Assembly: GCA_027923505.1 (NCBI GenBank)
Contig: BROI01000022.1
Coordinates: 186,001-250,000, forward strand
Direction: 5' to 3'
Source: Mayamaea pseudoterrestris
Lineage: Eukaryota
DNA length: 64,000 nt
Positions 25,311 through 60,406 of the stretch are shown piece after piece. The first letter of the stretch is position 1; each line of letters opens with the position of its first letter. Made by a program: the position numbers and the translations under genes. The notes below the pieces were generated by a model. The model had not been told where the DNA came from, searched no databases, and was given only the letters and a program-made list of their open reading frames with translations.

Positions 25311-25487
25311 TCGCTGAAATCGCTGATTCACCTCTTCATGACAGGGCAGAGTTGCTAATAGTAGATCGTGGTCAATTGTGAGCCCATAACGTACTTCATT
25401 GCAGCGTACTTGTACCGCTATGAGATGCGCCAATTGCTGTGGTCATGCAACTGCTTGTTTCTTGACGGCTTTGGCATTTGTTTCAAA

Positions 25488-25888
25488 ATACTATTGCCTA
25501 ATGACGTAGTTTTCACTGGCACCCGTTTCATACTATTGCCTACTGACGTAGTTTTCACTGGCACTCGTTTCGTATATTATAGCCTTGTGACGCTGTTTTC
25601 ACTGGCACTCGTTTCGTACTATTGCCTCATGACGTAATTGACACTAACACTCGTTTCGTACTACTGCCTTATGACGGTGTTTTCACTGGCATTCGTTTCG
25701 AACTATTGCCTCGTGACGTAATTGACACTGGCATCCGTTTTGTACTATTGCCTCATGACGTAATTGACACTGGCACTCGTTTCGTACTATTGCCTCATGA
25801 CGTAATTGACACTGGCACTCGTTTCGTACTATTGCCTCATGACGTAATTGAAACTGGCACTCGTTTCGTACTATTGCCTCATGACGTA
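25488..25888 (-). repeat. 42-bp minisatellite array, family A, reverse orientation, about 9.5 units
   Basis: tactattgcctcatgacgtaattgacactggcactcgtttcg repeated; reverse complement of the 6075 array. Confidence 0.95.
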
Positions 25889-26737
25889 AGATATCAGGAA
25901 TGCTGCACGTCGCGACCACCATGGAGTTTTTCTTCCGCTGCTTCGCACAACACGAGAGCTGTTGGTTTCTCGACGCGTGTCTCATGCATACAGAGCATTT
26001 AGACACTGCCGCCATGTCGGAGATGGCGATGCACTGCAATTCTTTGCCGCTGCCTCCTATCGCTTTCGTAACCGCAAGCGACCGTCCTTTCATCTTTCAT
26101 CTTATCTAATATTTCAATGATCATTTCTTCGTTCAAGTCATTACACAACAAATCAAACCAAAGTCGGAATATTGTCAATACACACTCACGAACAGTTGCT
26201 CCACGGGTGTCATGTATTAATTTACAGGAATGAACTCCCTTAAAAGCGAGGTTCGCAAGCACCTTCCAGCGAGCAATTCCTATTTCGAATAAAACTACCA
26301 AAGACAGAATCGACAGCCGATCAAAAGATTGCAGAAATTTCGAGGAATAAAGTCATGTATGGAGGAGCTGGACTGTTAAGATGGAGTGACGACTGCCGGA
26401 GTCGAAAGTGATGCGATGACGCGATACGCGATGGTGATCCGGTGCAAAGTTGCAACTGCCTGGGATACAGAATAATCCATGGTCGACAGTGCAACGATAG
26501 CAACTGCAAACGACGACCTTTCTGCGATCGAATGGCTGGAGCTATCGTTGGTGGCTCCTTGAATATACTGTTAGTGACGAAGGATCGCAGGGCATATTGA
26601 CAATTGACGTCGACAGCTAATCCAGCGATGAGATTCGCTGCTGTAACACAACAAGAGCGTAAAACAGATCTTTCAATTATTCGTTGTACTTGTGCAGAGT
26701 CCATTTTCTTTGTACAGCACGACATTGTTCCTCGACC

Positions 26738-27836: not shown

Positions 27837-28072
27837 CAATTACGTCAAAAGGCAATAGTACGAAACGAGTGCCAGTGTCAATTACGTCATAAGGCAATAT
27901 TATGAAACGAGTGCCAGTGAAAACTACGTCACGAGGTTATAGTATGAAACGAGTGCCAGTGAAAACTGCGTCACAAAGGCTATATTGTGAAACGAGTGCC
28001 AGTGAAAACTGCGTCATCAAGGCATAAGTACGAAACGAGTGCCAGTGTCAATTACGTCACAAGAACGAGTGC
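27837..28072 (+). repeat. 42-bp minisatellite array, family A, about 5.5 units
   Basis: Same consensus as the 6075 array; lies between the divergent reductase and oxygenase genes. Confidence 0.95.
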
Positions 28073-30309: not shown

Positions 30310-31419
30310 ATGAAGATCCGCGTCAAAGTCAGTCGCAGTCAACTGCAGGAGATGATGATGAAAGACCACGAAGAAAGAGATGTTTTGCTGCGAAAGCTAT
30401 ATCATGATGCAACCGATCAAACGGTCTGTATGGATCACGAATCTCTCGATTCATCAGTCATTGATCCATCTTCAAGTAGAGTTGCTGGCGACAAGTCAAA
30501 TCGACAAACACTGAAGCGAAGCAGCTCACTTCGACGACTTCTACTTCGACGAGACATCAAGAGCCACGAAGAAGTGCAAACCATTCACACTTATAGTGCA
30601 AAGGATTGTAACGATCGTCGAGTCTTTGGTCGAAGTGGGTCATTAAAGGTCCTCGTCGCCCGCAAGAATAGCAGCGACGATGTCTTTCAGGATCAACCAG
30701 CTACTCGACGAAGCAGTATTCGACGACGAAAAAGCAGCAGGAAGCTAAATGAAACGTCCAACGACACTCAAATAAAACGCAGCATGGAAGATCAGACGCG
30801 GACCAAGCCTCGACGCAGCGCTAGCAAAAGTCGGCCGTCGCGAGAAAATACACCGAGGGCGCGTTCCAAGGTTCGATCGTCGCCAAAATCAAAAACCCGC
30901 GTTCCATCTCCCAAAACACCAAAGACACCTGTCACGCCCAATTCGAGCAGTAAAACCAGGCGATCACTCCGATCCAGAAGCTTCAGCCTCCTGACGCCCA
31001 AGCTAGCCATGCCGTTGTTCCAACAGCGCGAGCAGGAGAAGGAGCAGGAGCAAGACGACGATTTAGAATTGTTCATGCAGGAATCCTTTTCGCCCATAAG
31101 AGAGCTTGATGAGTTGCTCGCAAGCAAGTCTCCGGCCAAGCTTATTCAGTCGCAGATGCAGCGACCTTCTCACGGTACTCCCTCATGCTCTACCACCAGC
31201 AGTAGCGACGCATTGGTAAACTCCCGGCACGGAGCCTTGGCGCATGTCACGACCGGCCGGGAAAAGCCAAGCCGCACAATTGGCCGGTCCAAGAGTTGTC
31301 AGCATCACGGTGAAGACAGCACACATACAACATCATCAGACATTCTCAATGCATATGATTACATCATGGAGGAGTCGCTTGACGTGAGGTCGATTCTCGA
31401 TATTAATACTGGATGGTAA
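30310..31419 (+). CDS. Hypothetical basic S/R/K-rich protein
   Basis: 369-aa uninterrupted low-complexity ORF. Confidence 0.65.
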   Translation: MKIRVKVSRSQLQEMMMKDHEERDVLLRKLYHDATDQTVCMDHESLDSSVIDPSSSRVAGDKSNRQTLKRSSSLRRLLLRRDIKSHEEVQTIHTYSAKDCNDRRVFGRSGSLKVLVARKNSSDDVFQDQPATRRSSIRRRKSSRKLNETSNDTQIKRSMEDQTRTKPRRSASKSRPSRENTPRARSKVRSSPKSKTRVPSPKTPKTPVTPNSSSKTRRSLRSRSFSLLTPKLAMPLFQQREQEKEQEQDDDLELFMQESFSPIRELDELLASKSPAKLIQSQMQRPSHGTPSCSTTSSSDALVNSRHGALAHVTTGREKPSRTIGRSKSCQHHGEDSTHTTSSDILNAYDYIMEESLDVRSILDINTGW

Positions 31420-31504: not shown

Positions 31505-34327
31505 CTAAAGTTCTTCTTCGTCTTCATCGTCTTCGTCACCTGCTTCATCCGTGTCAGCATCAACTTTCGGCTCGTCATCCGGAACAACGTGCACGCGTCG
31601 CAGTAGACGCTTTGTCGTAGACACTTGCTCTTCTGCCAATACGTGGTCGCTTACTGGCACTGGTAGCTTGTAGGATGCATCATTTGGCCGCCAATGTCGA
31701 CCAGCCCAGCTCATCAGCAGGGCCGAGTCGCGCGGAGGAAACGCTTGCGTGTACTGGTCCTGGATGCGCTCCACATTGAGTGCATTTACATCCGCAACAT
31801 ACACTGTCGCAGCCAGTCGCATCTCCTTGTTGGGTCGGTAATCGACGGATGATGTCGCGTGATAGGCATCATCGCCCATCATGGCGGCCATGCCGTACTG
31901 GTATTTTAAACGACCGACAGGTGTCGTCCCATCCGGCGCTGGTGGCCACTGCTGCAGGTCAAGCTCTGGACCGGTATCATTTGCCAAGAGCAGTGGAATG
32001 ATAATGTTGTAAGTCTTAGCTTGCGTTCTCGTTACGTCGTGATGTAAATAACCTTTAATGGCCTGTGAGACGGCGATGAATGTGACATGAAAGGCAACCA
32101 ACCCGTCCATTTGCAATTGCTCGCCAACACCGCGGAGCATTTCGTCAAATCCCGACGCTCCAAGAGCCTGCAGGTAATCTTCATGCGCCGGGTGTCCAGC
32201 TGGAGACAGCCAGTGCAAATCCGAGTGCCAATTCTTGCCGGGTCGTTGCAGATACCATCGCTCCTTGTTCACCGTCAGAAACATGTCGTCGTCAGGTAGT
32301 AAACCATTGCCATCACTCGTCACATGCTTTAAAATGTCGTAAATGCCAGTCTTATTACAATAGTCAAGCAAGCCAAGACGCACACGCTCAGAAATACCCA
32401 ATATGTATGCGTTTGGCGTCACCACAGATCCAGTATCCTTCCATCGAATATGTTCCATGTGTCCCGGCGGAAGATATGATGGTACGATAAAGTCGCCAGT
32501 TGGATTAGGATCCTGTGCGGCCCATGCTTCGGGATAAAGGCCATTTGGTACACCAACCGCGTGTCGAAAGGCATTCGGACTATACGCGTCGTCGTAGTAT
32601 GCCTTGTGCATTACTCGAATAGCCGTCGCAGGAACGTGGACGACACCAACTGAGTCGACGCGTTGATTGTCATCGGATAGTTTACATGTTGAAGGCGTGC
32701 CCATGTTATCTAGCTCGCGAACCATTACTTTGTATGCAGACCCATCACCATTCGATTTCTGCGTCCGCTCCAAAACATCGCAAGGTCGTAGGCAGCCGTA
32801 GTTTTCACTAGTCCAAACAACGTTGCCATTACTATCCGTTATTTCCTCAACCTCGTCCGACGAAGAGTGACCAAAGTAACATGCAGTCTGTAGATTCTGT
32901 GGATACGGATTGCTAGCTTGCTCGTCCAGGGTTCGAATAAGTGTACCATCCAATGCATGCTCCGCCGCAAATGCTAGCGGATCAACTTGGTCATTCAACT
33001 GCAACTGTCGAAGCTTCTCTTCGTATTGCTCGGCATGCTTGTCAAACGCCTTGGCCCAGTCGTCTCCGTAATCCAGCAAGACTTCCTCGTTTGGTAAAAT
33101 GTCTCGCGTTGCTATCACATTCACAACAAGCATTTCGTCTAGCGCCAATGGTTTTGCAAACAGTTCCATGGGTCGGATGGAATGTAAATGCGGTGCTTGC
33201 ATCGTGGTGGACCATTCGAGTCGAGCATTGGAGGTATATTGCGGCGTTGACGCGTGATTGAGCATGGAGACGGCTGGTTGTAGCGGCAGCAACAAGACAT
33301 TGGAAGCATTCGAGGCGAAGCAGTAATTCAACAGCAATTGATATCCAACTCCGCGAGTGTTTTGGTATCGAACGCTATGAGCGGTTCGGGTTGAAAATGC
33401 TGCAACCGAGTCAGCCGTCTCCATTCCATAATACTGTTGTTCAACCCGCTCAATTTGTGATTGATCAAAGTGCAAGACTGGCGACGACTCAATAACTTGA
33501 CCAGCCTGAAAGTGTCTTGTCGCAAACGATCCACTTCCAGCTTTTAGAATGGAGGATGGCTGAATCTTTAGTGCATTCGACAAGCAAATTGCCGACTCTT
33601 GCAAATGAAGCGTGCTCAAAACTTTTCGCTTGAGCGCCGAAACAAGGCTCGAATCATCAACGTCCGAATCACATGGCAATACAAGTTCCTCTCCAGCCCA
33701 GAGGTTCGTCGTCGCCGTGAATCCGTTTGTTTTGGGCGCATTGGCAAGAAGGTTTGTAGTCGCCGTGAAGCCGTTTGTTTTGGGTGCAAGTGAATGGTAG
33801 ATGAAGCTTCCAGCTGATGCATCTCGCATCGTGACATTGACTCGATCTCTCGTCACAATGTCATGTTTCATACCAGGATCTTCGTCATTTAAACTCTCAC
33901 TCCATGGCGCTTGAACATTGCTAAAGTGAAATGAGCAAACCATCATTGACGCTAGTCCAGTTGTGAGTAAATCGGTTCTGTATTGGTTCTCCAAAAGCAA
34001 TCCGGATTCACTCCGTAGCAAAGCGTCCAATTGCTTGTTTCCATAAGTCTGCATGAATCCATGCCATGGACTCCATTCATTCTTATTGGCGTCTGCAACG
34101 GGTAGAATCAATACAGACTCGCTTGCATTTGCAATGGTTGATCCTTGTCGAATGGCACGAGCCGAATAAAGACCGAGACGGCCGGGACGGACGGATGATT
34201 CCGCCAGGTAGAATGAGCAGTCATCTTCTGCTTTTGTAAGTGAAAACTTCAGTAGTAATAAGGAGAGAGAGACTGACCAATGGCAAGGTCGTCGTCTCGT
34301 CGCTGGAGAAGGAACGGTAGTCGCCAT
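31505..34327 (-). CDS. Secretory double SET-domain protein with a C-terminal 2OG-Fe(II)-like domain and EEL terminus
   Basis: Signal-like SLSLLLLKFSLTKA; degenerate SET1 (CSFYLAESS...GLYSAR); SET2 (SSILKAGSGSFATR, LLLNYCF, MLNHAS, IATRDILPNEEVLLDYG); FRHAVGVP motif; then HHD...YHAT...MRLAATVY; ends DEDEEEL. Confidence 0.8.
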   Translation of the reverse strand: MATTVPSPATRRRPCHWSVSLSLLLLKFSLTKAEDDCSFYLAESSVRPGRLGLYSARAIRQGSTIANASESVLILPVADANKNEWSPWHGFMQTYGNKQLDALLRSESGLLLENQYRTDLLTTGLASMMVCSFHFSNVQAPWSESLNDEDPGMKHDIVTRDRVNVTMRDASAGSFIYHSLAPKTNGFTATTNLLANAPKTNGFTATTNLWAGEELVLPCDSDVDDSSLVSALKRKVLSTLHLQESAICLSNALKIQPSSILKAGSGSFATRHFQAGQVIESSPVLHFDQSQIERVEQQYYGMETADSVAAFSTRTAHSVRYQNTRGVGYQLLLNYCFASNASNVLLLPLQPAVSMLNHASTPQYTSNARLEWSTTMQAPHLHSIRPMELFAKPLALDEMLVVNVIATRDILPNEEVLLDYGDDWAKAFDKHAEQYEEKLRQLQLNDQVDPLAFAAEHALDGTLIRTLDEQASNPYPQNLQTACYFGHSSSDEVEEITDSNGNVVWTSENYGCLRPCDVLERTQKSNGDGSAYKVMVRELDNMGTPSTCKLSDDNQRVDSVGVVHVPATAIRVMHKAYYDDAYSPNAFRHAVGVPNGLYPEAWAAQDPNPTGDFIVPSYLPPGHMEHIRWKDTGSVVTPNAYILGISERVRLGLLDYCNKTGIYDILKHVTSDGNGLLPDDDMFLTVNKERWYLQRPGKNWHSDLHWLSPAGHPAHEDYLQALGASGFDEMLRGVGEQLQMDGLVAFHVTFIAVSQAIKGYLHHDVTRTQAKTYNIIIPLLLANDTGPELDLQQWPPAPDGTTPVGRLKYQYGMAAMMGDDAYHATSSVDYRPNKEMRLAATVYVADVNALNVERIQDQYTQAFPPRDSALLMSWAGRHWRPNDASYKLPVPVSDHVLAEEQVSTTKRLLRRVHVVPDDEPKVDADTDEAGDEDDEDEEEL

Positions 34328-34549
34328 GGTGATGGACGATGGACTGCCATTGTCACGCTCACCTCAACTCGCTCACTGCTTGGGCGCGTGCTGATATATG
34401 ATGGTGGCTGGCCCGATGCGACATGAGGCTCGCCCGGCTTGCTCGCCAAAAGCGTCACGCACCTCCGCACCTCCGCACCTCGCACCTCGTCGCACCTCGG
34501 CATGTGGATTGTGCCAACAAGCCAACAGGATTTATCACAAACCTCCATC
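34328..34549. promoter_or_regulatory. Bidirectional promoter between the two SET genes, with (c)gcacctc repeats
   Basis: 222 bp between divergent ATGs; five gcacctc units at about 34458-34498. Confidence 0.55.
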
Positions 34550-36658
34550 ATGAGGCTTGTGCATTCTCAAGCTTTGACGAAGCGCACCTCTCACTATGCA
34601 TTGACTGTTAGTCTTATCATAGTGACATTGCTGTCATCAAATAGACTCGCAGTCGCTGCTATATCGAGCAATGAGACTGACCAACAGGCGCAGCATCGAA
34701 CACCACAGCAACAGCAACAACATTCATGCGGACTGTACTTGGCTCCAAGCACCATTCCAGGGGCTGGCTTGGGCATGTTCAATGGTCGCTCCTCAAAGTC
34801 GCTCTGGGAACCCATCGGGCCGGCTGATTTGGTGATTCCAGTCACGGACTACTCCGAACACAATTCAGTACAGTCCCACAATGACGACGAGGATGAGCAA
34901 GCATACATTATGAATTACTATGGATGGAACATTCCGAGCTTTGCACATCTGCAGCATGATGCCAATGTCGACGATACCGTTGCCTTTTGTCCGGGACCAG
35001 GCGCAGCCTTGAATTGTTTAATGGGACTTGTCAATACCGTCGCGCTTGACGAAGAAGTCTCATTCAAAACGTACACCAACCAGCATTCTTCCACGCCACC
35101 ACACGCCGGAAGCTTTACCCCATTCAGCAATCGACAGCTAGTATCCAAAGTGAATAATATTGAACCAGGTGCGGAACTCTTTGACGACTACGGCGAAGCA
35201 TACTTTCGAGTCAAGGAGCGACCAGCCTACCATTCCATTCCAGTGACGAGCGACTATTCCGACGCCGATTCTTTGCTGGAGGAATATGAATCACTTCGAA
35301 AGCAAGTTTGTGGAGATGGCCTGTGTCATGAACCAATGCGAGCTGCGGATCCGATTACAACAGTGTCTTCGCCCACGTCATCACTCCATAGTTCGCTCTA
35401 TCAGCTCATGAACTCGCTCAAATCAACATGGCCGAGCCCGGTATTGAACGCCTTGCCGGAAAATCCAGAAACGGTTGATCAACTTACGGCACAAGGTACT
35501 GCCATGCGTGACTATCATCGAAGCATTCGATCCATTGCTTGGCTCGAGGAGCACGGAGACTGCATGGACAAGATTCGCATCGACGAGAGTGGCATTCCAA
35601 ACGCAGGTAACGGAGCCTTTGCTACCACGTTCATTGCAAAAGGAGACATTGTCGGACCAGCGCCAGCGCTTCATATACCTCGTGACTTTATGCAAATGTA
35701 TCCCGTCGACTTTGACGAGAACGAACAGGAATATAATGTGAATGCAAAGACAAACGACGGACCCACTCATCAACAACTGCTACTGAACTATTGCTTTGGA
35801 CATGATCGATCCAGCCTGCTGCTATGTCCATACGGGGCAGCAACACAAGCAATCAATCACGATGCGATAGCGCCAAATGCCGAGGTGGTTTGGAACTATA
35901 AGCTCATGCAACGGCCAGAGTGGTTGGAATTGCCGTTGCCGGAATGGACGCACCACATGAGCGCAGGTTTGGTATTGAGCTATGTGGCCACTCGAGATAT
36001 ACAAGCTGACGAGGAAGTAACAATTGACTATGGACGCGATTGGCAGAAAGCTTGGGACGAGCATGTAGGAAGCTTTGAACCACCAGTGGATCGAGCCGAC
36101 TATTTGGATGCGCTGGCTTTGAACGAGCAAGAGTTGGAACTGCAGGTATCACCTTTTTGGTACAGCGACAAGTACGTGCAACTCAAATGCCGTGGCATGT
36201 ATTTGCGATGGAATACTGGAACGGTGATAGACCATGGAGACATTGACGACGATGAGGAGGAAGAAACGCCATTTTCGTACACGACCGAAACAGACAAGAA
36301 AACATTTTCATGCCGGCCACTGCATCGCTACGCATCCAAAAATACCAGTGACACGCTGTACGTGGTTCAAGTTTATGCAAGATACGGCGAAGACGGACAA
36401 TGCTTTGAAAGTGACTGGGAGGTCGTCTTTGGAATGCCACGTGATGCGCTTGTCTTTGAGGATCGAATGTACAGCAGAGAGTAAGTAGTTCCGTCGCCAA
36501 AAAAGAGTTTGTCGGCAAACGTTTCTAAACTCACTCGGTTGGTCACTCGCTTGTTTTACAGTCATGCACAACCATGGAGCTTTCGACATTCGATTGGGAT
36601 TCCTGATGAGATTATGCCTGAGGCTTGGCTTGACCTTGACGCGAGTGTGAAGATATAA
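34550..36658 (+). CDS. Secretory double SET-domain protein; 2 exons
   Basis: Signal-like ALTVSLIIVTLLS; CGLYLAPSTIPGAGLGMF; GAELFDDYG; SGIPNAGNGAFAT; LLLNYCFGH; AINHD; VATRDIQADEEVTIDYG. Intron 36481-36561 adds DHAQPWSFRHSIGIPDEIMPEAW. Confidence 0.82.
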
Positions 36659-36781
36659 ATCTTACACCCTAGCTAATCTAATAAAGCGCTACATGATTTT
36701 ACAAGTATGTGCTACAACTATTAGTACAATATCCAGAATTGTCATATTCAATGATTACACAATTCCACTGTATTTTTTCAA

Positions 36782-38599
36782 CTACGCCGGAGTCAGTCGG
36801 TACTGCATGACGGCAAATCCATACCGAGGCGATCCTCGCTTGAAGGCCACCTTCGACACCCCATGTCCTAAGGTAATCTCAACTGGTTCGGTCTCCTCCC
36901 ACTCGCCCATAGTGTACGGAATGGCAATCTCTCGCTTGTCCTTGCCATTGACAGTGACCGCCATGGGCAGTTCGTCACGATGAACCGTACATACCATGGC
37001 CGTCATATTGTATCGTCCTTCTTGATACTTGTCGAGCGTATACTCAACCTCAGCTTCTGCTTGAAGAAAAATTTGACAGCCACCCATGAACGACTTGTGA
37101 ATGTGAACTTGGTTGTTCGGCTTGGGGGGTTTCGTGAACGCCGTTCCTGGTATGACAATTGCTCTTCCATCCCTTGTAATTAATTCCTTTTCTTCCTTTT
37201 GTGCGATGATCTTGTCGAGTAGAGTGATGACTGAACTCTTTGGATGCAATGGCGGGCATTTATCCGTACATTGTTTGCCTAGACGCTTGCGCTGGAACAA
37301 GGCCAAGGAACACCAGAGTGCCTTCGAGCTTGGGTCGGCAATTTTCGACACCAACGTACGATCCTCGCCACTCGCCGTCGCAATCCACTCCAGTCGCAAC
37401 ACCTTGCGCATGTACTCGTCATCCGTCTTGCAGGCATATCTTGCTTGCGTCATCCACAAGAAATCATTGCCAGTCACTGGACCCCAGTAACTCTTGTGAA
37501 TACAAGCACCCAAGCACGTCATCCACCCATTCACGGTATGCCGGACAAGCGCCGCATGGCCAGGCTGCTGACAGCCCCAGGTCGGAATACCAAATGCCTT
37601 GCATGCAAACCGCCCATACCAGGCGCGAGGACCGCACTTTCCGCCGCTACTCAATATTTGATCATACGTTCGGACTTCCTTACCATCCTTGTCGCGCCGC
37701 CACCAGACAGGATTAGTGTATCCAACATCCTGTTTGACAATCATGCAGTAGCGCCACTGTAGGTTCTGCATGTATATTAAGTCTGGTCTATAGTTCCGCA
37801 AACATTCACGACCCCACGTGAGTTCATCGTCTTGGGCGTCACTGTCAATTGCCATGCGAAGCTCCCATACGGCAAACGTAGAAAACAAAGGATCAAGTTC
37901 GCCGGCTAAGTAAGCTTGCTTGTAGTGTTTGTAGCGCTTGACTGGATCAATCTCGTAGCCCTGTCCAACTTTTAAATCGATTGGTGTGCACAACTCCAGT
38001 GCTACGGCCAACGCAAGTCGCTGCAAGACTGGATCCTTTCCCCCTGGAATTGACTTGTAGATCTGCAAGGCCTTGGCGTAGCAATTCTTTCTTGGACCGC
38101 CGGAACTTGCAAACTGCATGAGAAGGTCAGTGTCGCAAAAGAATTGAATCAAATCCTCGTGTCCGTACGCTTGCACTTGCTGCTGAAAGGCCATGCCTTT
38201 TGGGGCGCCCGCCTCCATCATGCTTGCCGCAGTCACGAGTGAAATGGACGAGGAGCTGTCGAGTGGCTGATTCAACAAGGAGTCTTCCAATTGTTTCAAA
38301 ATTTGGTCGGCAATCTTCGCCGCCTTTTCGCGAGCTTGTTCAACCGATTGGGTCGATGCATCCAGCTTGGCTTGCGCAGCTTGTAGTATCGCTTCACTCG
38401 CATGCTCCTTGGTCTTTTGATCAAGCTCCTTTTGCGCTTGATTCTGCTGTTTAGAAGCAGCTTCAAAGCCGACAATGGCTGCATGAAAATCTGCTTGATG
38501 CGGCATGGATGGAACGTTTGCCTGCTTGAAGACGTCGTTGCGCCACTCTACCAAATAATTGGCGTCGTAAACTCCCTTCATTGCAACAAGAGGCTTCAT
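36782..38599 (-). CDS. Hypothetical protein with a transglutaminase-like Cys/His core and a C-terminal carbohydrate-binding-like beta domain
   Basis: Intronless ORF of about 605 aa; GGKCGPRAWYGRFACKAFGIPTWGCQQPGHAA; C-terminal YTMGEWEETEPVEITLGHGVSKVAF. Confidence 0.6.
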   Translation of the reverse strand: MKPLVAMKGVYDANYLVEWRNDVFKQANVPSMPHQADFHAAIVGFEAASKQQNQAQKELDQKTKEHASEAILQAAQAKLDASTQSVEQAREKAAKIADQILKQLEDSLLNQPLDSSSSISLVTAASMMEAGAPKGMAFQQQVQAYGHEDLIQFFCDTDLLMQFASSGGPRKNCYAKALQIYKSIPGGKDPVLQRLALAVALELCTPIDLKVGQGYEIDPVKRYKHYKQAYLAGELDPLFSTFAVWELRMAIDSDAQDDELTWGRECLRNYRPDLIYMQNLQWRYCMIVKQDVGYTNPVWWRRDKDGKEVRTYDQILSSGGKCGPRAWYGRFACKAFGIPTWGCQQPGHAALVRHTVNGWMTCLGACIHKSYWGPVTGNDFLWMTQARYACKTDDEYMRKVLRLEWIATASGEDRTLVSKIADPSSKALWCSLALFQRKRLGKQCTDKCPPLHPKSSVITLLDKIIAQKEEKELITRDGRAIVIPGTAFTKPPKPNNQVHIHKSFMGGCQIFLQAEAEVEYTLDKYQEGRYNMTAMVCTVHRDELPMAVTVNGKDKREIAIPYTMGEWEETEPVEITLGHGVSKVAFKRGSPRYGFAVMQYRLTPA

Positions 38600-39057
38600 A
38601 CTGGTTGCCTTCCAATGCAAGAGGAGCGAAACGATAAATTTAGACGCACGAATGATGGTGATGAATGGCCGCTCTCCTGCAAAAGGGAAACGGATCGATG
38701 GAACATCAATGAGGTGCGTCGCAACGCGAATGTCACGCTTTCCGGGTCCTACCCTGGCAACGACCCAGCAACGTCAAATGGAATGCTTAACAAGGCGGGA
38801 TTTCGATAGTGAATCGAGCAAAGGATTGATATAGACTACATCGGTAGGCATGGTTTTGAATAACCATACCGAAGAGGGTCAAAAGATACAGTATTGAGGG
38901 AAGGAAAAGTCTCGTTGCTCACTTAATCGTACATTCCAAACATTGGTGTAGGATTGGTTCTATGATTATCATATCATTCTATTTTCCTTTTATTTCGGGT
39001 AGACTGAGTTTCAGTAACCCGGTGTATGCTTTGGCAAAGTTTAAAACAAGTAATGGT

Positions 39058-39924
39058 TTACTCGTCTTCCTCCTCGTTTGACGACGCAGCCGGACCGGCC
39101 TCGGACTCTTCATCATCTTGATCAGAGTCGGACTGGGCAGCATCGTCTTGCTCTTGCATGTCGTCAGCTTGAAAATCGTCGTCGATTGTAGGTTCTTCGC
39201 CTGAAGTGGTAGGCTCGGACGCAGACTCATCGTCGACTGGAACTGGAGCAGCGTCGTCCTCGCCATTTTGTGACTTGAAGTCTTGGATTTCGTCCGTTAT
39301 TTCTTCCACTGTAGCTGTATTCTCCAACTCCGGCTCGTTTGCGACGACTGGTTCCGGTTCCGCTGCCGTAGTTTCCGTCTCGACTGCTCCGTCCTCGTTG
39401 GTTGAAGCATCGTCATCGTCCGCCGCAACATCAGCTCCTGCCGCAACATTGATCTCGTCCAACTCTGTATGGCCATTCTCGACAACAACAGGCTCCTCTG
39501 GCTCTTCTATAGCAACTTCTGCCACTGGTTCAGTTTCAGGTTCGGGCTCTTTCTTGTTATCCACGACTACTTGAGCTTGTTCGTCGCGAGGTGAGTCGAC
39601 CGTCGGAGCTGATTCTTCCGTTGGTTTCGTCTCATCGACGGATGCTCCTTCCTCCTTGCTTGGTGGATCATCGTCTTCCACAACAGCTGGAGCAGCTGGA
39701 GATGGGGCCGACGACACAGATTCCTTGATATCGAATTTTGGAGGAGGAGGAGGAGGAGGAGACGAGACTGCATCGGCTTGCTGCGCCGTCGGTTGATACG
39801 GAGAAACCTTGAATTTGCTTGGCGTCGGCGGTTTCTTGGCAGCGTCTTCTGCCTCCTGCTGCTCGCGACTTTGCTTTGACGCTTGCTCAAAGAGAGCAAT
39901 GCGATCCTTGATGCTTCCTACCAT
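39058..39924 (-). CDS. Acidic, disordered protein with N-terminal SIKDRIALFE motif
   Basis: MVGSIKDRIALFEQ start, polyproline stretch, E/D/P/A-rich body; frame kept in the second copy through in-frame indels. Confidence 0.75.
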   Translation of the reverse strand: MVGSIKDRIALFEQASKQSREQQEAEDAAKKPPTPSKFKVSPYQPTAQQADAVSSPPPPPPPKFDIKESVSSAPSPAAPAVVEDDDPPSKEEGASVDETKPTEESAPTVDSPRDEQAQVVVDNKKEPEPETEPVAEVAIEEPEEPVVVENGHTELDEINVAAGADVAADDDDASTNEDGAVETETTAAEPEPVVANEPELENTATVEEITDEIQDFKSQNGEDDAAPVPVDDESASEPTTSGEEPTIDDDFQADDMQEQDDAAQSDSDQDDEESEAGPAASSNEEEDE

Positions 39925-40705
39925 GGTACGATTGTGATGCCTATTATTTGATGATGGCCGATGACGATGATGATCTTGTGGTCGACGAAAAAGGAGAGGT
40001 CCCAGAACGTCTTGGGATCTTGATTGCACCATGACCGGAAATGACCATGTCGCGCTACGACATAACACAATCCTTGTCCAGCTACGTACCTTTAGGCTGG
40101 ATCCAGCCAACCAAGAGTATACATTTACATGTAAATAGAATGATGGAGACATTTTTGTCCTCTTTGGTCGGTTTAAATCCACTGCTAGACTTTGCGGGAA
40201 TTTTAATCGTGCTTTGAAGATCTGCAAGCCTCCATGGTAAAGTAAGTTGAAAGAATTCATACACAATATGACTTACAATAAGAAGTAGATTCATGAGCCA
40301 ACTAGCTCTTTAAAGTCTGGCTATAAACATTGCATTTGAAAACATGTTCCAACTGAATACAGTGAAGATGGTGCACCGTTGGACAAAGCAATTCCGCACT
40401 ACCGGTAGACCTTATGCGGTCGCTGCACAGGCCTCGGCATCGGATTCACAAATGCCCAGCAGACCGCTATCAAGCGCTAAACTGCCTTACAAAAATTGTA
40501 TTAAAAATGACTTGGGAAACGACACTGTCAGTTCCAGAGTCGTGCGTCCTCGTTGAAGTACAAGCATCTGCTGTCATCCTCGTTTGCCTTGGTACTGACC
40601 GAGCACTGGTTATAAAAACAGCTCCCGTTCCCTCGCCGCGTTGAGTTCACCACGGCTTTTGCCAACGCCTCGACGATGCCCCAGCAACATGCAACAACTT
40701 GATGT

Positions 40706-43700
40706 TTACTTGACAAAGGTACACTCAAGCGCAGCCTCATAAAGGGGGTTTCTCGTCCATAGGCCATCGACAATGATCCACGCTGGATTTCGCAGATTGA
40801 TCGACTTATTGCGAGGACTTGCGCATTCCTTCTCAAAACTCGATGATGCCGACTTTAGTAACATTTGCTTGCGGAGCTGCACTATGTTTGGAATTGTCAT
40901 GTGGCTCTTGTTTCGCTTGGTGTAGTATAGCGATCTATTCTCTTCGAACCAAGTTTCAAACGTGTATCCGGTTTCCTTCAGCCCGGACAAAAATGTTTGT
41001 AAGACGGAACGGAATGCAAGCCGACACAGCAGACCGCGAAAGCGAGCATTCAAGAATGTAGCTGCACCTTGCTGAATCTCGGCAAGTCTTCGCTCCAATG
41101 ATTCAAAAGCGCGATGCTTGAGCAACACCTTTGACTTGCCAAAGGTTATGAATGTACCTGTTTGCTCTTCGTTCGCCTGTACTCCACGGCTTTCCTTCTC
41201 ATCAGCGTGCTCCTTTGGTCTGTTAGCATCGTCGAGCACCACCAGCTTGAGAAGCTTTTCGACTATTTCCTTGCACAAATCACGCATAGCATTCGCCGAC
41301 ACTCGGCTCGACGGAGCGCGTTGATTGACGATCACTCCATACCGCTTGATAAAGTCGGCGTGTGAGTAGTGCAATGTGAATCCGGAGCGGGTCACGCTGA
41401 CGGCCTGAATAATTCCGCCGCAACGAAGCTGGTGCGCCGCCATTGGAACGTCAAATCGGTCCGGGACAAGCTGCTCGTTTGGCTTGATGCAGCGTACGTA
41501 ATGGGGTGAAGTTGAGTCGATCTTTGATCGGAGGTCCTTCACCTGCTGCCGAAAGAAACCGCCCACCGTTACTCGAGCTGGTGCTTTCATTTGAGCTGCT
41601 GGTGATGTTTCTTCACCTTGACGCGGTAATATAATTTCGGCAAGCTGATGAACAAAAGGATCTCTGCTGCCTAGTAGTAATTCTGATGTTTCAGGTGGCA
41701 AGTCGTCCCTATTCTTCTCCACAAAGTCTGTAACATCATACTCCACCAAGCCAGCAAAATGGATGATGCCGAATTGTGTGTCATGTTTGCTGCTACGAAA
41801 TCGCTCATTGCTGCCGTCGTGCGCTTTGTGTACTTTCTGTCCGAACGCTACATCGGAGGCATTCGGGGCTCGGCACATGTCATCCAGTATTACCATGATG
41901 CCTTCTGGCTTACGCTCTATCAAGTCAAGTACATCTTGGTTCTCTGGAAACTTGATAAAGTCCCAGTCTATACCTTCATTCACGTATTCAGTCTGTTCAT
42001 TCTTGAGCATGAACGTGTTGAATTGCTGTTGAAGAGCTTCGTTGCAAAAATTGATGCATAATTGCTCAAAGCTGTTCACTTTGAACGACTCGAATCCGAA
42101 TATGTCCAAGACACCAATGCTTGCGACTGGTATGCATGACTCCTCGGTTCGTTCGGTGACTCTGAACGAAATGGTTTGGTTGACACGGCTCACTAAAAAC
42201 TCGAAGAGCGCACCGTACACTGACTTTAAAAGTGCATCTAGTCCCTTCCGTGCTCGCTCCACGGTTTGTGTCTTGCGTATCGTCTTTCCGAGCGCATTAA
42301 TGGACACGTAGCAGAGTGCCTCGTTAAAAGCTTGCGGCGTGATACCCAATAATGAGCACGCTGGTCCAATGTGCGCGCTTTCCAAATCCAGAGCAGACTC
42401 TTCACCGTTTCCGGTGTCTTCAAACTCAAGGTTGGCCGCGTGCAGAATGGCTGCCGTCATGCGCAGCACCTTGTCACGTTCCTCGTCGGTAAATCCCATT
42501 ATAGTCATGGCCTCAAGCAAACCGCGAAACGTATCCTTATCCGAAACACCATCGCGTGATCGAGTGATGGCTCCGTTGCAGAGCAATTTGAAATCGGATG
42601 GACGGGCGCTCGCTGACAACATCAGCTTATCTTCCAAGTAATTGATCGTCGGCAGCTCTCCCGAAAGGACTTCGTAGAATATGTGGTAGTTGCGTTCGCC
42701 TTGCGACTGTGCGACCAGCCGCACCTTTTCCAATAAATATGTTTCAATTTTTGTCCCCACTAAGCGGCCCGTTTTGGTAAACTGCATGTCTATAAACTTG
42801 CCGAATCGGCTGGAATTGTCGTTACGAATAGTGCGGGCATTACCAAATGATTCCAGTATTGGATTGCTTTGCAACACTTGGGCCTCGATCGAGGATCCCT
42901 TGATGGTGCTCGTGTCCGTAGTTTGCTTTTTGACTGTGGCAGTCGTCGTTGGTAACCGTGCAGCACTTAAGGTAGCAGTACTAGCTTGTTCTGTTGTTGC
43001 GTCCTGCTGCTTTTTTACCTTTTGGTATGCACGTGGAGTGGACTGTCTGGAACCAGCCATGGCGGATCGCTGGCTGAGCGCTGCCAAGTATTTCATCAAA
43101 TGCTTGGTCGTGACTGTCTTGCCAGCGCCCGACTCGCCCGAGACTAGTATGGATTGATCGAATCGTTTACCATAATGTTTCATTGTTGCTGTTCCATTTG
43201 CGATTTTTGTTGTCCCAATATTCATGTAAATGTTTCGCATCATGCTTCGAAAGGCGCCGTCGGCAATCGCATATGTATGTGGCGGCAGCGACTCGACCAA
43301 GGCTTGCTCCGCTTTGGTCCAGTATAATGCCATGACATCGTCGCCATACAGCTCTGGCAACTGTTGAAATGGATTGCATGCAATGAGTACTGGACCAGTG
43401 GCAGTGTAAATGAGTCCCTTGTGGTATCTATGTTGAAGGCATTCCACGACGGTTGGTTCATGAAAGTGCTGCAAAACAACCAAGTCATCTGGATAATGAG
43501 ACGACTGGTTTCCAATGAGAATGTCGGTTCCAATCTTATCGGATGGTAGTGTAAGTGTCATGTCGTTATTATTGTCGTTGCCAGTGCTGTAGCTGCTGGA
43601 TGCGCTTGCATCAAGCGAGACTCGAACGGAAAGTTGATTGTCATCTCGCCTTGTCATCCCACCTTGCGTCCATTCGTACTCTTGAGTTTTGTTGTAGGAT

Positions 43701-44065
43701 TGGCTTGATATTCTTTGACTTTTTGCTTGTTCTACATCATTATTGCTGCTCCTTCTGAGTCTGATAATGTCGTCGTCACTCTTGTTGCGTTTAGGAGGCG
43801 TTCGACAGGATCCGACGCTTGGAAGGTCCTCGCTGCTGTGATTCCGATGCAGTCCATTCGTTTCCGCTTGTTCTTCTTCCTCGACTGCTCCTCCTTCATC
43901 GTTTCCTTGCGGCTGCTCTGTCGCTCGTGCTCGTCGAAGGCCGCCTCTGGAAAAGGCTTTCTTCGGTCGATTCTCATTGACAAGTTCCGTCCGGATCCAG
44001 ACTCGTATTTCTTTCTTGTTGTTGCCGTCGTCGCTGCTGCTCCCGGGAGATTCATTTGATGACAT
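40706..44065 (-). CDS. Myosin heavy chain: motor domain with a very short tail
   Basis: GESGAGKT P-loop, LESFGNARTIRNDNSSRFGKF, YLLEKVR, GVLDIFGFE, NSFEQLCINFCNE, PHYVRCIKPN, QLRCGG. Confidence 0.95.
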   Translation of the reverse strand: MSSNESPGSSSDDGNNKKEIRVWIRTELVNENRPKKAFSRGGLRRARATEQPQGNDEGGAVEEEEQAETNGLHRNHSSEDLPSVGSCRTPPKRNKSDDDIIRLRRSSNNDVEQAKSQRISSQSYNKTQEYEWTQGGMTRRDDNQLSVRVSLDASASSSYSTGNDNNNDMTLTLPSDKIGTDILIGNQSSHYPDDLVVLQHFHEPTVVECLQHRYHKGLIYTATGPVLIACNPFQQLPELYGDDVMALYWTKAEQALVESLPPHTYAIADGAFRSMMRNIYMNIGTTKIANGTATMKHYGKRFDQSILVSGESGAGKTVTTKHLMKYLAALSQRSAMAGSRQSTPRAYQKVKKQQDATTEQASTATLSAARLPTTTATVKKQTTDTSTIKGSSIEAQVLQSNPILESFGNARTIRNDNSSRFGKFIDMQFTKTGRLVGTKIETYLLEKVRLVAQSQGERNYHIFYEVLSGELPTINYLEDKLMLSASARPSDFKLLCNGAITRSRDGVSDKDTFRGLLEAMTIMGFTDEERDKVLRMTAAILHAANLEFEDTGNGEESALDLESAHIGPACSLLGITPQAFNEALCYVSINALGKTIRKTQTVERARKGLDALLKSVYGALFEFLVSRVNQTISFRVTERTEESCIPVASIGVLDIFGFESFKVNSFEQLCINFCNEALQQQFNTFMLKNEQTEYVNEGIDWDFIKFPENQDVLDLIERKPEGIMVILDDMCRAPNASDVAFGQKVHKAHDGSNERFRSSKHDTQFGIIHFAGLVEYDVTDFVEKNRDDLPPETSELLLGSRDPFVHQLAEIILPRQGEETSPAAQMKAPARVTVGGFFRQQVKDLRSKIDSTSPHYVRCIKPNEQLVPDRFDVPMAAHQLRCGGIIQAVSVTRSGFTLHYSHADFIKRYGVIVNQRAPSSRVSANAMRDLCKEIVEKLLKLVVLDDANRPKEHADEKESRGVQANEEQTGTFITFGKSKVLLKHRAFESLERRLAEIQQGAATFLNARFRGLLCRLAFRSVLQTFLSGLKETGYTFETWFEENRSLYYTKRNKSHMTIPNIVQLRKQMLLKSASSSFEKECASPRNKSINLRNPAWIIVDGLWTRNPLYEAALECTFVK

Positions 44066-44187
44066 GCTATCAAGCTATAGCTAGTTTAGAAGGATCTAAT
44101 TGATCCCGCTGGAAATGAAGAACAAAAGGTTGTTGGATCGGCTGTTTTCGTCGACTTCCGGTCATTCGAAACCGCTACGACTATTAT

Positions 44188-49692: not shown

Positions 49693-51798
49693 ATGAAGAT
49701 TGCTCGCCCACAAGACCAGCAATCCCATCCTTTAACGTTTATAATTATGATGCATGCACAAAGAAGACTACGAGCACTGCTTAGCATCTGGGTTATACTC
49801 GCAATTCATATTGCCGAAGCTCGTCCATCTAGCAGCAAGAGCAACGAATTCTTTTCGCAGCAATCTACTCCTTCATATTCTTCTTCCACGTTTCATCGAG
49901 GAACATCTTCCCTTCAACCATTGCAACAACGCAAGTCACTCTTGGATGGAATTATTACATTCTTACAGCGATGGAGGCACCGTAGAGGTAGGGGAAACGT
50001 CGACGTTAGCGAATCGTACATGGAGCAGCCGCCGCCGTCGTTACAGCAAGAGCACTCGCAACACTTGCCGCATGATTCAATAACATCATCGCCTGCTGCG
50101 GAACAAAATCAAGCAGTACCATACCAAGCTTCTCAACAGCCATACAATAGTGTCTTGCAGTCGACTGCCAGACAGCTGCAGCATCATTCGCAGTCGTTAC
50201 AATTTCCTCCGCCTCGGAAACTACTTTCCATCGCAGCGTCGGGCGTGCAGATTGGACTCATTTGCTGGCTTGGAAACATGGTTTGGAAGGCATTCACGGA
50301 AGTATTGGAGGAATACAGTCAGGAAATTACGTCGCAGGAGGATCCGCTGCTGTGCAAGCGAGACCAAGTGACTCAAGTAGTGGCTTTTTTGCAGCAAGAC
50401 CCAACGGTAATGCAGAACCAACTGGACAGTAAGAAGAAACGCGACAATATTCCGCCGTTGCATCTGCTGCATATTGCCCGCCAATTGGTAATGGCGGGGT
50501 TGCCATTGACGGCGCCGGCGACAGATCCCAATGCTACGTCAGTACAATACGTGCTATCGCGCATGACCAAGACGCAAGCGAATATGCTGCAGCAATGCCT
50601 TCGAACGGCGTCGACGGCAAAACCAATTGCAAAATCTAATTCACCTTGGGATCAAGTGATTGGATTGGAGCCCATCAAGGAGCGACTCGTCTCGGCTTTG
50701 GCCTTGACGGTGAACGCACATGGAGACGGTGGAAAGCAGGCGCACCAAAATCACAGACATGCGTTTCGCTCCTTGTTTGACCATTCCGCCATGACTGGCA
50801 TCTTGCTATACGGTCCACCCGGATGTGGCAAGACTCTTCTCGTCAAGTCACTTGCGTCGGCCGCTCGCTTGCCCTGCTTGGTGGTGGCGCCATCGGTGCT
50901 CCTGCGCAAATATGTTGGCGAAACGAACGCGCAAGTCAAGGCGCTCTTTGGATTGACACAATTGCTGGCGCCTTGTATCGTTTGTATCGATGAGCTGGAC
51001 GGATTATTTCGGGAGCGACGAGACGATGAACATGAAGTGAGTCGAGACTTGAAGACGGAGTTTCTACAGTGGTGGGATGGTTTGCTGCATCCGTCTAGTG
51101 GAAGTGACGCGACGGCATCCTCATCCTCTACCGGCAGCATTAATAAGAAGCGCATTATAATCATTGGCGCTACAAATCGACCGTTTGATGTTGACGCAGC
51201 TGTTCTTCGCCGACTTCCGCAGTCTCACTTTGTGGGCCTGCCCGATGGATCGGTCCGCGCAGCTCTGCTCAAGCAACTCCTGGCACATATTCCCAATACA
51301 TGTTTGTCGGATGCTGACGGCATGAACGAGATTGTTGCCATGACGGAGCGGTATACTCCCAGCGACTTGAAGCAAGTTTTGCAGACGGCTGCTTTGATGG
51401 GACCGATGCGTGAACCGACTGCCAGGCCATTGACGACGGACGACGTGCGTCAGGCGCTACAAAGTACTCCGCCAACCCCATTGTCGTTGGCGTACCGCAA
51501 ATCGCTCGCTATGTTTTGTCAGCAGCAGTCTCAGCAGCAGGGTCAACAGCCGCAATCGTTCTTGCCGTTTGATGGCGTGACACATGCGGCGCCCAATGCC
51601 TTTAATTTACAACCAAAATGGGAAACAGACTTGGGCAACTTTTACAATGTTGGATCGATTGGGGTTGATCATGATACCTTTGACGCGCTGTCGTTTCTTG
51701 TAGACTTGATGGATTCGAGCGATGCATCGGATCACGATGGCATTTCCACTGAGACCTCTCGTCAATGTCATGTTTCATACTGGATCTTCGTCATTTAA
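49693..51798 (+). CDS. AAA ATPase, MSP1/ATAD1-spastin group; native 3' end replaced at the duplication junction
   Basis: GILLYGPPGCGKT, CIDELDG, LKTEFLQWWDG, IIGATNRPFDVDAAVLRRLP; the last codons derive from duplicated SET-gene antisense sequence after about 51750. Confidence 0.85.
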   Translation: MKIARPQDQQSHPLTFIIMMHAQRRLRALLSIWVILAIHIAEARPSSSKSNEFFSQQSTPSYSSSTFHRGTSSLQPLQQRKSLLDGIITFLQRWRHRRGRGNVDVSESYMEQPPPSLQQEHSQHLPHDSITSSPAAEQNQAVPYQASQQPYNSVLQSTARQLQHHSQSLQFPPPRKLLSIAASGVQIGLICWLGNMVWKAFTEVLEEYSQEITSQEDPLLCKRDQVTQVVAFLQQDPTVMQNQLDSKKKRDNIPPLHLLHIARQLVMAGLPLTAPATDPNATSVQYVLSRMTKTQANMLQQCLRTASTAKPIAKSNSPWDQVIGLEPIKERLVSALALTVNAHGDGGKQAHQNHRHAFRSLFDHSAMTGILLYGPPGCGKTLLVKSLASAARLPCLVVAPSVLLRKYVGETNAQVKALFGLTQLLAPCIVCIDELDGLFRERRDDEHEVSRDLKTEFLQWWDGLLHPSSGSDATASSSSTGSINKKRIIIIGATNRPFDVDAAVLRRLPQSHFVGLPDGSVRAALLKQLLAHIPNTCLSDADGMNEIVAMTERYTPSDLKQVLQTAALMGPMREPTARPLTTDDVRQALQSTPPTPLSLAYRKSLAMFCQQQSQQQGQQPQSFLPFDGVTHAAPNAFNLQPKWETDLGNFYNVGSIGVDHDTFDALSFLVDLMDSSDASDHDGISTETSRQCHVSYWIFVI

Positions 51799-52233: not shown

Positions 52234-52451
52234 GGTGATGGACGATGGACTGCCATTTGTCGCTCACCTCCAGCTCGCTCACTGCTTGGGCGCGTGCTGA
52301 TATATGATGGTGGCTGGCCCCATTCGACGCGAGGCTCCCCGGCTTGCTCGCCAAAAGCGTCACGCACCTCCGCACCTCCGCACCTCGCACCTCGTCGCAC
52401 CTCGGCATGTGGATTGTGCCAAGCCAACAGGATTTATCACAAACCTCCATC

Positions 52452-54566: not shown

Positions 54567-54690
54567 ATCTTACACTCGAGCTAATCTATTAAAGTGCTAC
54601 AAGATTTTTACAAGTATGTGCTACATCTATTAGTACAATATGTAGAATCGTCATATTCAATAATCGCACAATTCCACTGTATTTTTCCAA

Positions 54691-60366: not shown

Positions 60367-60406
<40 letters not shown>

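Follow-up and report, generated by a model that had tools for sequence, protein, structure and literature searches.

Could a single protein both methylate and hydroxylate the lysines of a silica cell wall? The question is raised by a gene in a 64,000 nt stretch of the genome of the diatom Mayamaea pseudoterrestris (assembly GCA_027923505.1, contig BROI01000022.1, positions 186,001 to 250,000 of the forward strand; hereafter the window, in whose numbering all positions are given). At 31505–34327 on the reverse strand lies a single uninterrupted open reading frame (ORF) which, read with the standard code, encodes a protein of 940 residues, P0001, a candidate for the enzymes responsible for lysine methylation and hydroxylation in the proteins of the silica cell wall. 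The lysine modifications of biosilica have been known for decades, and include di- and trimethylation, δ-hydroxylation followed by phosphorylation, and the attachment of polyamine chains, and in vitro they govern how silica precipitates. Diatom walls contain ε-N,N,N-trimethyl-δ-hydroxylysine and 3,4-dihydroxyproline, and the lysines of silaffin-1A are trimethylated, δ-hydroxylated and phosphorylated; silaffins enter the endoplasmic reticulum (ER), and their KXXK clusters have been proposed as recognition sites for modifying enzymes described as unknown, the cited part of this 2015 review naming no methyltransferase or hydroxylase for the silaffin lysine modifications (PMC4557024).

P0001 is laid out as a signal-like N terminus, a SET-like domain (SET1), a second SET domain (SET2), a cysteine-rich middle region, a double-stranded beta-helix (DSBH) domain and an acidic tail ending in EEEL (Table 1). 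The signal-like N terminus, the two SET-like domains, the C-terminal extension, their motifs and the DEDEEEL end had been recorded in a first-pass annotation of the window, made from the letters of the DNA, and all are present. Contigs from four sequencing runs of unspecified kind, all of one study, span the ORF colinearly and without joints, and neither transcription nor intron status can be deduced from them. The extra C-terminal residues that the same annotation had seen relative to a neighbouring paralogue, P0002, are borne out: the alignment of the two proteins stops at about residue 602 of P0001, and the surplus of ~340 residues consists of a domain of ~300 residues and an acidic tail of ~40.

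The nature of the extra domain, here called the X domain, is indicated most clearly by its predicted structure. An AlphaFold2 model of residues 599–899 has a predicted local distance difference test score (pLDDT) of 95.6 and a predicted template-modelling score (pTM) of 0.93, and forms a double-stranded beta-helix. When this model was compared with the PDB using Foldseek, 369 matches were found at E≤0.001, and all of those listed are oxygenases dependent on Fe(II) and 2-oxoglutarate (2OG). Among the Foldseek matches realigned with VIA-align, 708 of 1000 chains score Z≥8, the best being CurA Hal (Z 12.7, root-mean-square deviation (rmsd) 3.6, 198 residues aligned), with OkaE, AsqJ, SnoK/SnoN and AviO1 at ~12 and PhyH and PHYHD1 at ~11; OkaE, AsqJ, SnoK/SnoN and PhyH span Z 10.9–12.1. 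A search of 48,161 representative chains that did not depend on Foldseek placed SnoK first (Z 11.9) and 86 chains at Z≥8; the score has fallen to 9.4 by rank 50, with prolyl hydroxylases at ~10.3 and a mimivirus lysyl hydroxylase at 9.4. The nearest clusters in a feature search of the ESM Atlas are named 2OG-Fe(II) oxygenase or HalD (score 0.95). The two structure searches, one of them independent of Foldseek, yielded hardly anything but Fe(II)/2OG oxygenases, and with structure prediction they agree with the DSBH fold of Fe(II)/2OG oxygenase type first guessed for this region, and the modelled X domain almost certainly has it.

The residues expected of an active centre are also in place. In the alignment used for the X domain (A1; P0001 and 34 mostly stand-alone relatives, mean column identity 26 %) no columns are invariant other than those of D764, H823 and R837, while H762 is conserved in at least 90 % of the 35 sequences; in a wider set of X-domain copies, 215 of 237 have arginine at the position of R837. 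The strands that follow residue 145 of the model can be read as DSBH strands I–VIII; strand II is followed by H762 and D764, the short strand at model residues 225–227 contains H823, and R837 opens that at 239–247. The end of strand II, strand VII and strand VIII are the canonical sites of the 2-His-1-carboxylate triad and of the ligand to the 2OG C5-carboxylate. All four residues (H, D, H, R) are kept in 202 of the 206 relatives that have a single, fully covered X domain. Where there are two to four copies, at least one is intact in 33 of 34 proteins and the extra copies frequently lack several of the four residues jointly (for example QKFH, WSSM and RSTM). Joint loss in redundant copies combined with strict retention elsewhere is the behaviour of catalytic residues. 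The first-pass annotation had picked out these very positions, and both its HHD at 32036–32044 and its YHAT with an arginine 14 residues on are confirmed by translation, 31805–31864 reading YHATSSVDYRPNKEMRLAAT; the conservation that it proposed to check holds as well. Since aspartate, rather than alanine or glycine, follows the first histidine (HxD, not HxA/G), the centre looks like that of a hydroxylase and not of a halogenase. W691, W706, Y809 and Y830 of the X domain are conserved too, and might form an aromatic cage around a methylammonium group. Judged from the sequence and the model, the X domain is very probably a catalytically active dioxygenase.

The relationship of the X domain to described oxygenases is distant. 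It has the DSBH core, the facial triad as placed by strand position and the basic residue of strand VIII found throughout the Fe(II)/2OG superfamily, and it does not reach the gathering threshold of a described Pfam family: neither P0001 nor any of the 35 members of A1 has a Pfam match in this region, the families PhyH (PF05721), 2OG-FeII_Oxy_3 (PF13640) and HalD (PF23169) included. Searches of the PDB sequences with phmmer or with a profile yielded no match (the best profile E-value, 0.16, was to unrelated proteins), and comparison of A1 by hhalign with the prolyl 4-hydroxylase (P4H) tail of the relative P0057 gave a probability of 0.2 %, and so no link. No JmjC chain is found among the best 50 rows of either VIA search, though kinship with JmjC enzymes is not thereby excluded. 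The plateau of structural scores places the X domain at about the same distance from many subfamilies, as fits a separate family within the superfamily, and by these comparisons of sequence and model it is a new oxygenase family inside the Fe(II)/2OG superfamily and outside its described families. We also looked for a link of the domain to cyanophages of the Syn9 type, since diatom expansions of homologues of Syn9 gp54, a cyanophage-type dioxygenase, are reported in the cited part of PMC2938197, with metabolite roles suggested. No tie was found, either by tblastn (no match of the X domain among 50,697 phage records) or when A1 was compared with 17 Syn9 proteins, gp54 and gp50 among them, by hhalign and hmmsearch (probabilities of at most 0.6 %); a scan of viral contigs gave three pattern matches, none of which was confirmed.

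The second candidate active centre of P0001 is SET2, which matches Pfam SET (PF00856) over residues 264–421 with an E-value of 1.2e-11 and a score of 45.4 bits, the cut-off being 22.4. An AlphaFold2 model of residues 30–600, built from 32 aligned sequences (pLDDT 81.6, pTM 0.83), gave 145 Foldseek matches at E≤0.001, those listed being SET lysine methyltransferases, and VIA-align puts them on model residues ~220–400, that is protein residues ~249–429, or SET2. The agreement is with SETD7 at Z 11.9 (rmsd 2.8, 113 residues aligned) and with vSET at Z 10.6 (103 of the 105 vSET residues aligned), and SET2 is the only part of this 571-residue model that is clearly matched. GxG, NH and the tyrosine of (E/D)LxxDY are the catalytic and S-adenosylmethionine motifs of SET domains, and their counterparts in SET2 (G264/G266, N357-H358 and D419-Y420-G421) are shared by all, or by no fewer than 90 %, of the 32 sequences; with this conservation, SET2 appears intact and looks catalytically competent.

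SET1 is a different matter. By itself it scores 19.5 bits with Pfam SET, under the cut-off of 22.4, although a profile–profile comparison (hhalign) of the SET1 and SET2 slices of the alignment gives a probability of 96.9 % (E-value 1.5e-10, 143 columns), and because of this match we regard SET1, on its sequence, as an old internal duplicate of SET2. It has C131-S132 where SET2 has N-H, and C219 where the catalytic tyrosine aligns, and both C131 and C219 are themselves conserved in the 32-sequence alignment. SET1 therefore lacks the catalytic motifs, whereas SET2 has the motifs, the fold and a score above the Pfam threshold, and SET1 is probably an inactive SET-like module. Of the two SET-like domains first reported, then, both are homologous and the second does carry NH and DYG, but the first is degenerate and below threshold. 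Cysteines are invariant across SET1, SET2 and the middle region (residues 430–598), which has no significant Pfam match and is also present in P0002. A loop of SET1 with pLDDT below 50 contains a recent, in-frame tandem duplication, in which two 39 nt copies, 90 % identical and spaced 48 nt, repeat APKTNGFTATTNL.

Several features of this protein point to the secretory pathway. The N terminus reads MATTVPSPATRRRPCHWSVSLSLLLLKFSLTKA followed by EDD, with RRR at residues 11–13, a hydrophobic stretch at 17–30 and small residues at −3 and −1 of a putative cleavage site (T-K-A, then E); the signal-peptide call is a hydropathy heuristic, the best 11-residue Kyte–Doolittle mean in the hydrophobic core being 1.79. 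The only other stretch of the protein with a mean of at least 2.0 starts at residue 743 and is part of a C-terminal-domain beta-strand, so that P0001 is read as soluble. Hydrophobic N termini occur in 132 of 231 proteins of the X family, compared with 29 of 231 internal control segments, and fusions of the X domain to ShK and P4H-type domains, together with the invariant cysteines, likewise speak of a secretory context. At its other end P0001 has a 40-residue acidic run that closes with DEDEEEL. An -EL end is found in 45 of 281 X-family proteins, 32 of them with DEL or EEL, against a background of the EL dipeptide at 0.67 % of positions, and this recurrence argues for selection. Precedents for Fe(II)/2OG oxygenases of the ER lumen are the collagen prolyl and lysyl hydroxylases. 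In diatom plastid presequences an aromatic residue typically follows the signal cleavage; in P0001 the putative cleavage site is followed by the acidic E-D-D, and a plastid destination is therefore unlikely. We conclude that P0001 is probably located in the secretory pathway or the ER, as far as its sequence predicts. The ER-lumenal location proposed in the first-pass annotation is thus favoured by the signal-like N terminus and by the xDEL/xEEL ends that recur among relatives, but EEEL itself fits the classic retrieval pattern only in part.

The oxygenase domain is not private to P0001. At E≤0.001 there are 104 long relatives of the X domain, and the family as a whole has 473 representatives (at 50 % identity) at this threshold, 360 of them below 1e-10; a further 111 shorter relatives all lie below 1e-45. 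The nine organism names available are all of diatoms, and on this basis the family is likely to be restricted to diatoms. Pfam SET is found in 84 of the 104 long relatives, and a hidden Markov model (HMM) of the BacSET-type SET2 matches 129 of 281 X-family proteins, with this SET always N-terminal of X. Other SET partners of the X domain go unrecognized by this HMM and can barely be aligned to SET2 by BLASTP; P0117 has the order X-X-SET, and P0169, a 1047-residue protein from a transcript of Nitzschia sp. RCC80, the order Ank-SET-X-MBD, with an intact X domain and no signal peptide. The domain is thus found fused to three unlike types of SET. In centric diatoms (P0057, P0125 and P0173) it is fused to ShK and to a Pfam 2OG-FeII_Oxy_3 domain of P4H type; P0173 represents a cluster of 28 members, of which 16 carry names, and the 15 listed are all prolyl 4-hydroxylase. 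A FastTree of 222 X domains puts that of P0001 in a supported group of 76 rows, among which 66 are fused to BacSET, and the X domains of P0117 and of the MBD type in other supported sets, although this tree is unsuited to counting fusion events, many of its rows without SET being fragments.

Some of these relatives deserve mention in their own right. P0169 and P0160 stand for a signal-less branch in which an intact X domain is combined with a methyl-CpG-binding domain (MBD), ankyrin repeats and a SET domain of another type, which suggests a chromatin-associated version of the SET–oxygenase pair. Many others (P0004, P0005, P0107–P0109 and P0111–P0116 among them) have two to four X domains in tandem, typically one intact copy and others without most of the four residues, and from their sequences look like arrays of an enzyme with pseudo-enzymes. 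P0214 (616 residues) has a signal peptide, a degenerate X domain (Q, D, Y, R) and then a separate PhyH domain (Pfam, E-value 3.5e-6). The domain, then, is that of a large family whose members may also stand by themselves, be repeated in tandem, be coupled to prolyl 4-hydroxylase or form part of a signal-less Ank-SET-X-MBD protein.

Our explanation of the locus, which we put forward tentatively, is that P0001 is a soluble secretory protein, probably of the ER lumen, with two enzyme activities on one chain. SET2 would use S-adenosylmethionine to methylate lysines, at the ε-amino group, of cell-wall proteins that are rich in lysine and have just been imported, and the tethered dioxygenase, with Fe(II), 2OG and O2, would add hydroxyl groups to the side chains of these (methyl)lysines or of others close by, the two activities together giving the methylated hydroxylysines of diatom biosilica; SET1 and the degenerate oxygenase copies of relatives would be pseudo-enzymes that hold the substrate. 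The repeated pairing with unlike SET domains points to an X domain that acts on the substrate of its SET partner, protein lysine. That X acts on lysine or methyl-lysine in proteins, with hydroxylation at a carbon atom, is an idea taken solely from the logic of the domain fusions and is possible but doubtful, and we are equally guarded about methylation by SET2 and hydroxylation by X of wall-protein lysines on their way through the ER. The one-enzyme proposal of the first-pass annotation has therefore gained an intact SET2 and a DSBH oxygenase with conserved residues, but its catalysis and its silaffin-type lysine substrate are only inferred. A bolder form makes X the lysine δ-hydroxylase of biosilica and the SET–X proteins single-chain 'methyl-hydroxylysine synthases' of the ER, with independent recruitment of X to three kinds of SET, including that of a nuclear Ank-SET-X-MBD protein. 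This we think rather unlikely; if true, diatoms in general would have invented a coupling of lysine methylation with hydroxylation that serves cell-wall proteins as well as chromatin.

For the methylating half there is a published framework. Nemoto et al. are said to have described in 2020 the BacSET family, diatom SET proteins with an ER signal peptide, and the SET part of P0001 would fit the published idea of BacSETs, the likeness being one of family description. In Seminavis, BacSETs are co-expressed with wall genes and peak at cytokinesis, according to the cited part of a preprint (10.1101/2020.11.23.393678). Both elements of the background first invoked for this gene, a secretory diatom SET family tied to wall formation and trimethyl-δ-hydroxylysine in silaffins, are in print, in the parts of the literature cited here.

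A number of observations weigh against the reading of P0001 as an ER-lumenal methylase and hydroxylase of wall lysines. The classic ER-retrieval pattern is [KRHQSA]-[DENQ]-E-L, and EEEL fits it from −3 to −1 but not at −4, where it has E; no more than 45 of the 281 relatives end in -EL, and the named orthologues P0032 and P0089 do not. The X domain has no sequence-level tie to characterized oxygenases, whether through Pfam, PDB sequences or hhalign to the P4H domain, and its structural scores hardly distinguish among many subfamilies (Z 11.9 to 9.4 over the best 50 rows), with enzymes of small molecules at the top and protein hydroxylases lower (P4Hs at ~10.3, the mimivirus lysyl hydroxylase at 9.4). 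The geometry of the triad in P0001 is judged from strand positions alone and not from side-chain distances. Finally, the X domain often stands alone, pairs with P4H and ShK, and occurs in the signal-less Ank-SET-X-MBD protein of Nitzschia, and from such varied architectures it follows that the family is not tied to silaffins as such.

The pairing with P4H opens another route, in which X hydroxylates a different residue of secreted wall proteins, chiefly C3 of proline, so that together with P4H it would produce 3,4-dihydroxyproline, and the fusion to SET would reflect a shared substrate protein. This amino acid is a known wall constituent (cited part of PMC4557024), the X domain is fused to ShK and a P4H-type domain in P0057, P0125 and P0173, and P4Hs are among its structural matches at Z of about 10.3. 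SET fusions are nevertheless far commoner, being present in 129 of 281 proteins compared with a handful for P4H, those with three unlike SET types point to lysine, and a P4H partner argues equally for a non-redundant activity on something other than proline, so that we regard the proline route as unlikely. Slightly more so is a role of X as an N-methyl-lysine demethylase which, like the JmjC enzymes, would hydroxylate the methyl group, release formaldehyde and so edit or limit the methylation set by SET. Such chemistry is within the reach of DSBH oxygenases. The Ank-SET-X-MBD architecture of the Nitzschia transcript is in keeping with it, as are the fusions of JMJD2/KDM4 to TAM/MBD and SET domains tabulated in the cited part of PMC2938197. 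A single ER-lumenal chain that both wrote and erased the mark would, however, run a futile cycle; the 2OG-binding arginine stands at strand VIII as in PhyH-like enzymes, while the JmjC arrangement of Lys and Thr is absent; and the best-supported group around the X domain of P0001 is of secretory type, with 66 of its 76 rows fused to BacSET.

The small-molecule enzymes at the head of the structural matches (CurA Hal, SnoK/SnoN, AsqJ, OkaE and AviO1) raise the prospect that X acts on a non-protein substrate of the secretory pathway, long-chain polyamines or another metabolite. BacSETs have been suggested to act on both wall proteins and long-chain polyamines, according to the cited part of a paper that refers to them (PMC11151724), and the metabolite roles suggested for diatom expansions of phage-like dioxygenases (cited part of PMC2938197) point the same way. 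Differences in Z among the subfamilies are within about 2 units and do not discriminate, however, SET domains are enzymes of protein lysine, and no tie of X to the cyanophage Syn9 proteins was found; we consider such a substrate very unlikely. We give still less credence to the view that X is a non-catalytic binding module, or that P0001 serves the modification of Rubisco in the plastid. The fold can evidently persist without the four residues, which many tandem copies lack, but the P0001 copy keeps all four, as do 202 of the 206 single-domain relatives. Diatom Rubisco does contain trimethyl-lysine, 4-hydroxylysine and 3,4-dihydroxylysine (cited part of PMC9833100), but E-D-D after the putative cleavage site and an acidic, EEEL-ending C terminus do not fit plastid import, to judge by diatom plastid presequences.

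P0001 and its divergently oriented paralogue are arranged head to head, and the intergenic region between them contains a tandem repeat, (CGCACCTC)x5, at 34458–34498, directly upstream of the P0002 start codon. A direct segmental duplication of ~10 kb relates 33844–40062 to 51753–57969 (95.1 %) and 40612–44187 to 58037–61644 (96.7 %), the two copies being ~17.9 kb apart. Its left edge cuts inside the P0001 gene, so that the second copy holds only a frameshifted remnant of P0001; it retains the counterpart of P0002 (52304–54391, encoding a 96 % identical protein) and a 605-residue gene beyond. Convergent with P0001 is a 369-residue ORF (30310–31419, forward strand) very rich in Ser, Lys and Arg, which has no Pfam match and no hydrophobic N terminus; its product is probably disordered and basic, and is not clearly recognizable as a silaffin. 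Elsewhere in the window there are arrays of imperfect repeats at 6078–6468, 13048–13390, 25472–25889 and 27837–28063, with self-matches of 80–90 % identity at an offset of ~42 nt; one imperfect repeat is common to three loci, in both orientations, and the array at 13 kb is a separate one.

Table 1. Features of the P0001 locus (window positions)
Feature	Position	Strand	Basis
Whole ORF P0001, 940 residues plus stop	31505..34327	-	ORF translation
Residues 1-33, signal-peptide-like N terminus (RRR, hydrophobic core, TKA/ED)	34229..34327	-	Hydropathy heuristic
Residues 39-224, SET1, degenerate SET-like domain	33656..34213	-	Pfam SET 19.5 bits; hhalign to SET2
48 nt tandem duplication in SET1 loop, APKTNGFTATTNL twice	33702..33788	-	Self-comparison
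Residues 249-429, SET2, canonical SET lysine methyltransferase domain (predicted)	33041..33583	-	Pfam PF00856; SETD7/vSET fold match
Residues 430-598, helical linker and beta-rich region, conserved cysteines	32534..33040	-	Alignment, AlphaFold2 model
Residues 599-899, X domain, DSBH of Fe(II)/2OG dioxygenase type (predicted)	31631..32533	-	AlphaFold2, Foldseek, VIA
H762-H763-D764, HxD of proposed facial triad	32036..32044	-	Translation, conservation, model strands
H823, proposed distal iron ligand, strand VII	31859..31861	-	Translation, conservation, model strands
R837, proposed 2OG C5-carboxylate ligand, start of strand VIII	31817..31819	-	Translation, conservation, model strands
Residues 900-940, disordered acidic tail ending EEEL	31508..31630 (EEEL 31508-31519)	-	Candidate ER-retrieval signal
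Divergently oriented paralogue P0002, 660 residues, SET-SET-middle region, no oxygenase domain	34502..36484	+	Alignment, Pfam
174 bp head-to-head intergenic region, P0001/P0002	34328..34501	.	ORF positions
Truncated, frameshifted remnant of first ~160 codons of P0001 gene	51753..52236	-	Edge of ~10 kb segmental duplication

By coupling an apparently intact SET domain to an apparently intact Fe(II)/2OG oxygenase, P0001 offers a concrete pair of activities for KXXK peptides, and such a SET–oxygenase protein could be a handle on recombinant, correctly modified silaffins. The X domain also defines a large oxygenase family that is absent from Pfam, one that includes putative pseudo-enzymes among its tandem copies and in which fusion to SET recurs. 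A full-text search, whose scope left out most subscription journals and with them the original BacSET description, found no paper in which a diatom SET protein is connected with a 2OG oxygenase domain, or in which a silaffin lysine hydroxylase is named.

Among known systems P0001 is closest in its SET part to the BacSET family, being a diatom SET protein with a secretory-type N terminus, and BacSETs have been linked in print to cell-wall formation; it differs by the C-terminal dioxygenase domain, of which the papers searched made no mention for BacSETs, P0002 being the form with SET only. In its oxygenase part it resembles PhyH-like dioxygenases (CurA Hal, 3nnl; SnoK, 5epa; AsqJ, 5dap; PhyH, 2a1x; PHYHD1, 3obz), with which it shares the DSBH over about 200–220 of 301 residues (Z 10.9–12.7) and the HxD...H motif with an arginine that opens strand VIII 14 residues past the distal histidine. 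These are, however, only about 10 % identical to the X domain, which has no Pfam or profile match to them, and are cytosolic or bacterial enzymes of small molecules and not secretory multi-domain proteins. The lysyl hydroxylases of collagen (PLOD/LH) and the collagen P4Hs are ER-lumenal Fe(II)/2OG oxygenases acting on Lys or Pro of secreted structural proteins, and LH chains have more than one activity. Their fold matches that of the X domain (Z 9.4 for mimivirus L230, 6ax6, and about 10.3 for P4Hs), but LH belongs to another subfamily and has a glycosyltransferase as its second activity where P0001 has a methyltransferase domain, and in relatives of X the P4H-type domain is a separate, additional one. 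TMLH, the 2OG oxygenase of carnitine synthesis, is a mitochondrial enzyme of yet another subfamily that hydroxylates free trimethyl-lysine at C3; it is like the X domain in the carbon hydroxylation of trimethyl-lysine proposed here, and unlike it in its free amino acid substrate, its mitochondrial location and its subfamily. JmjC oxygenases fused to SET or MBD (JMJD2/KDM4; cited part of PMC2938197) also combine a 2OG oxygenase and SET on one chain, with MBD recurring in P0169 and P0160, but they belong to nuclear chromatin and have the JmjC version of the fold, whereas P0001 is of secretory type and its matches are classical 2OG oxygenases. What is known in this comparison is the BacSET family and the Fe(II)/2OG superfamily; what is new is a family of oxygenases within that superfamily which is recurrently fused to SET domains.

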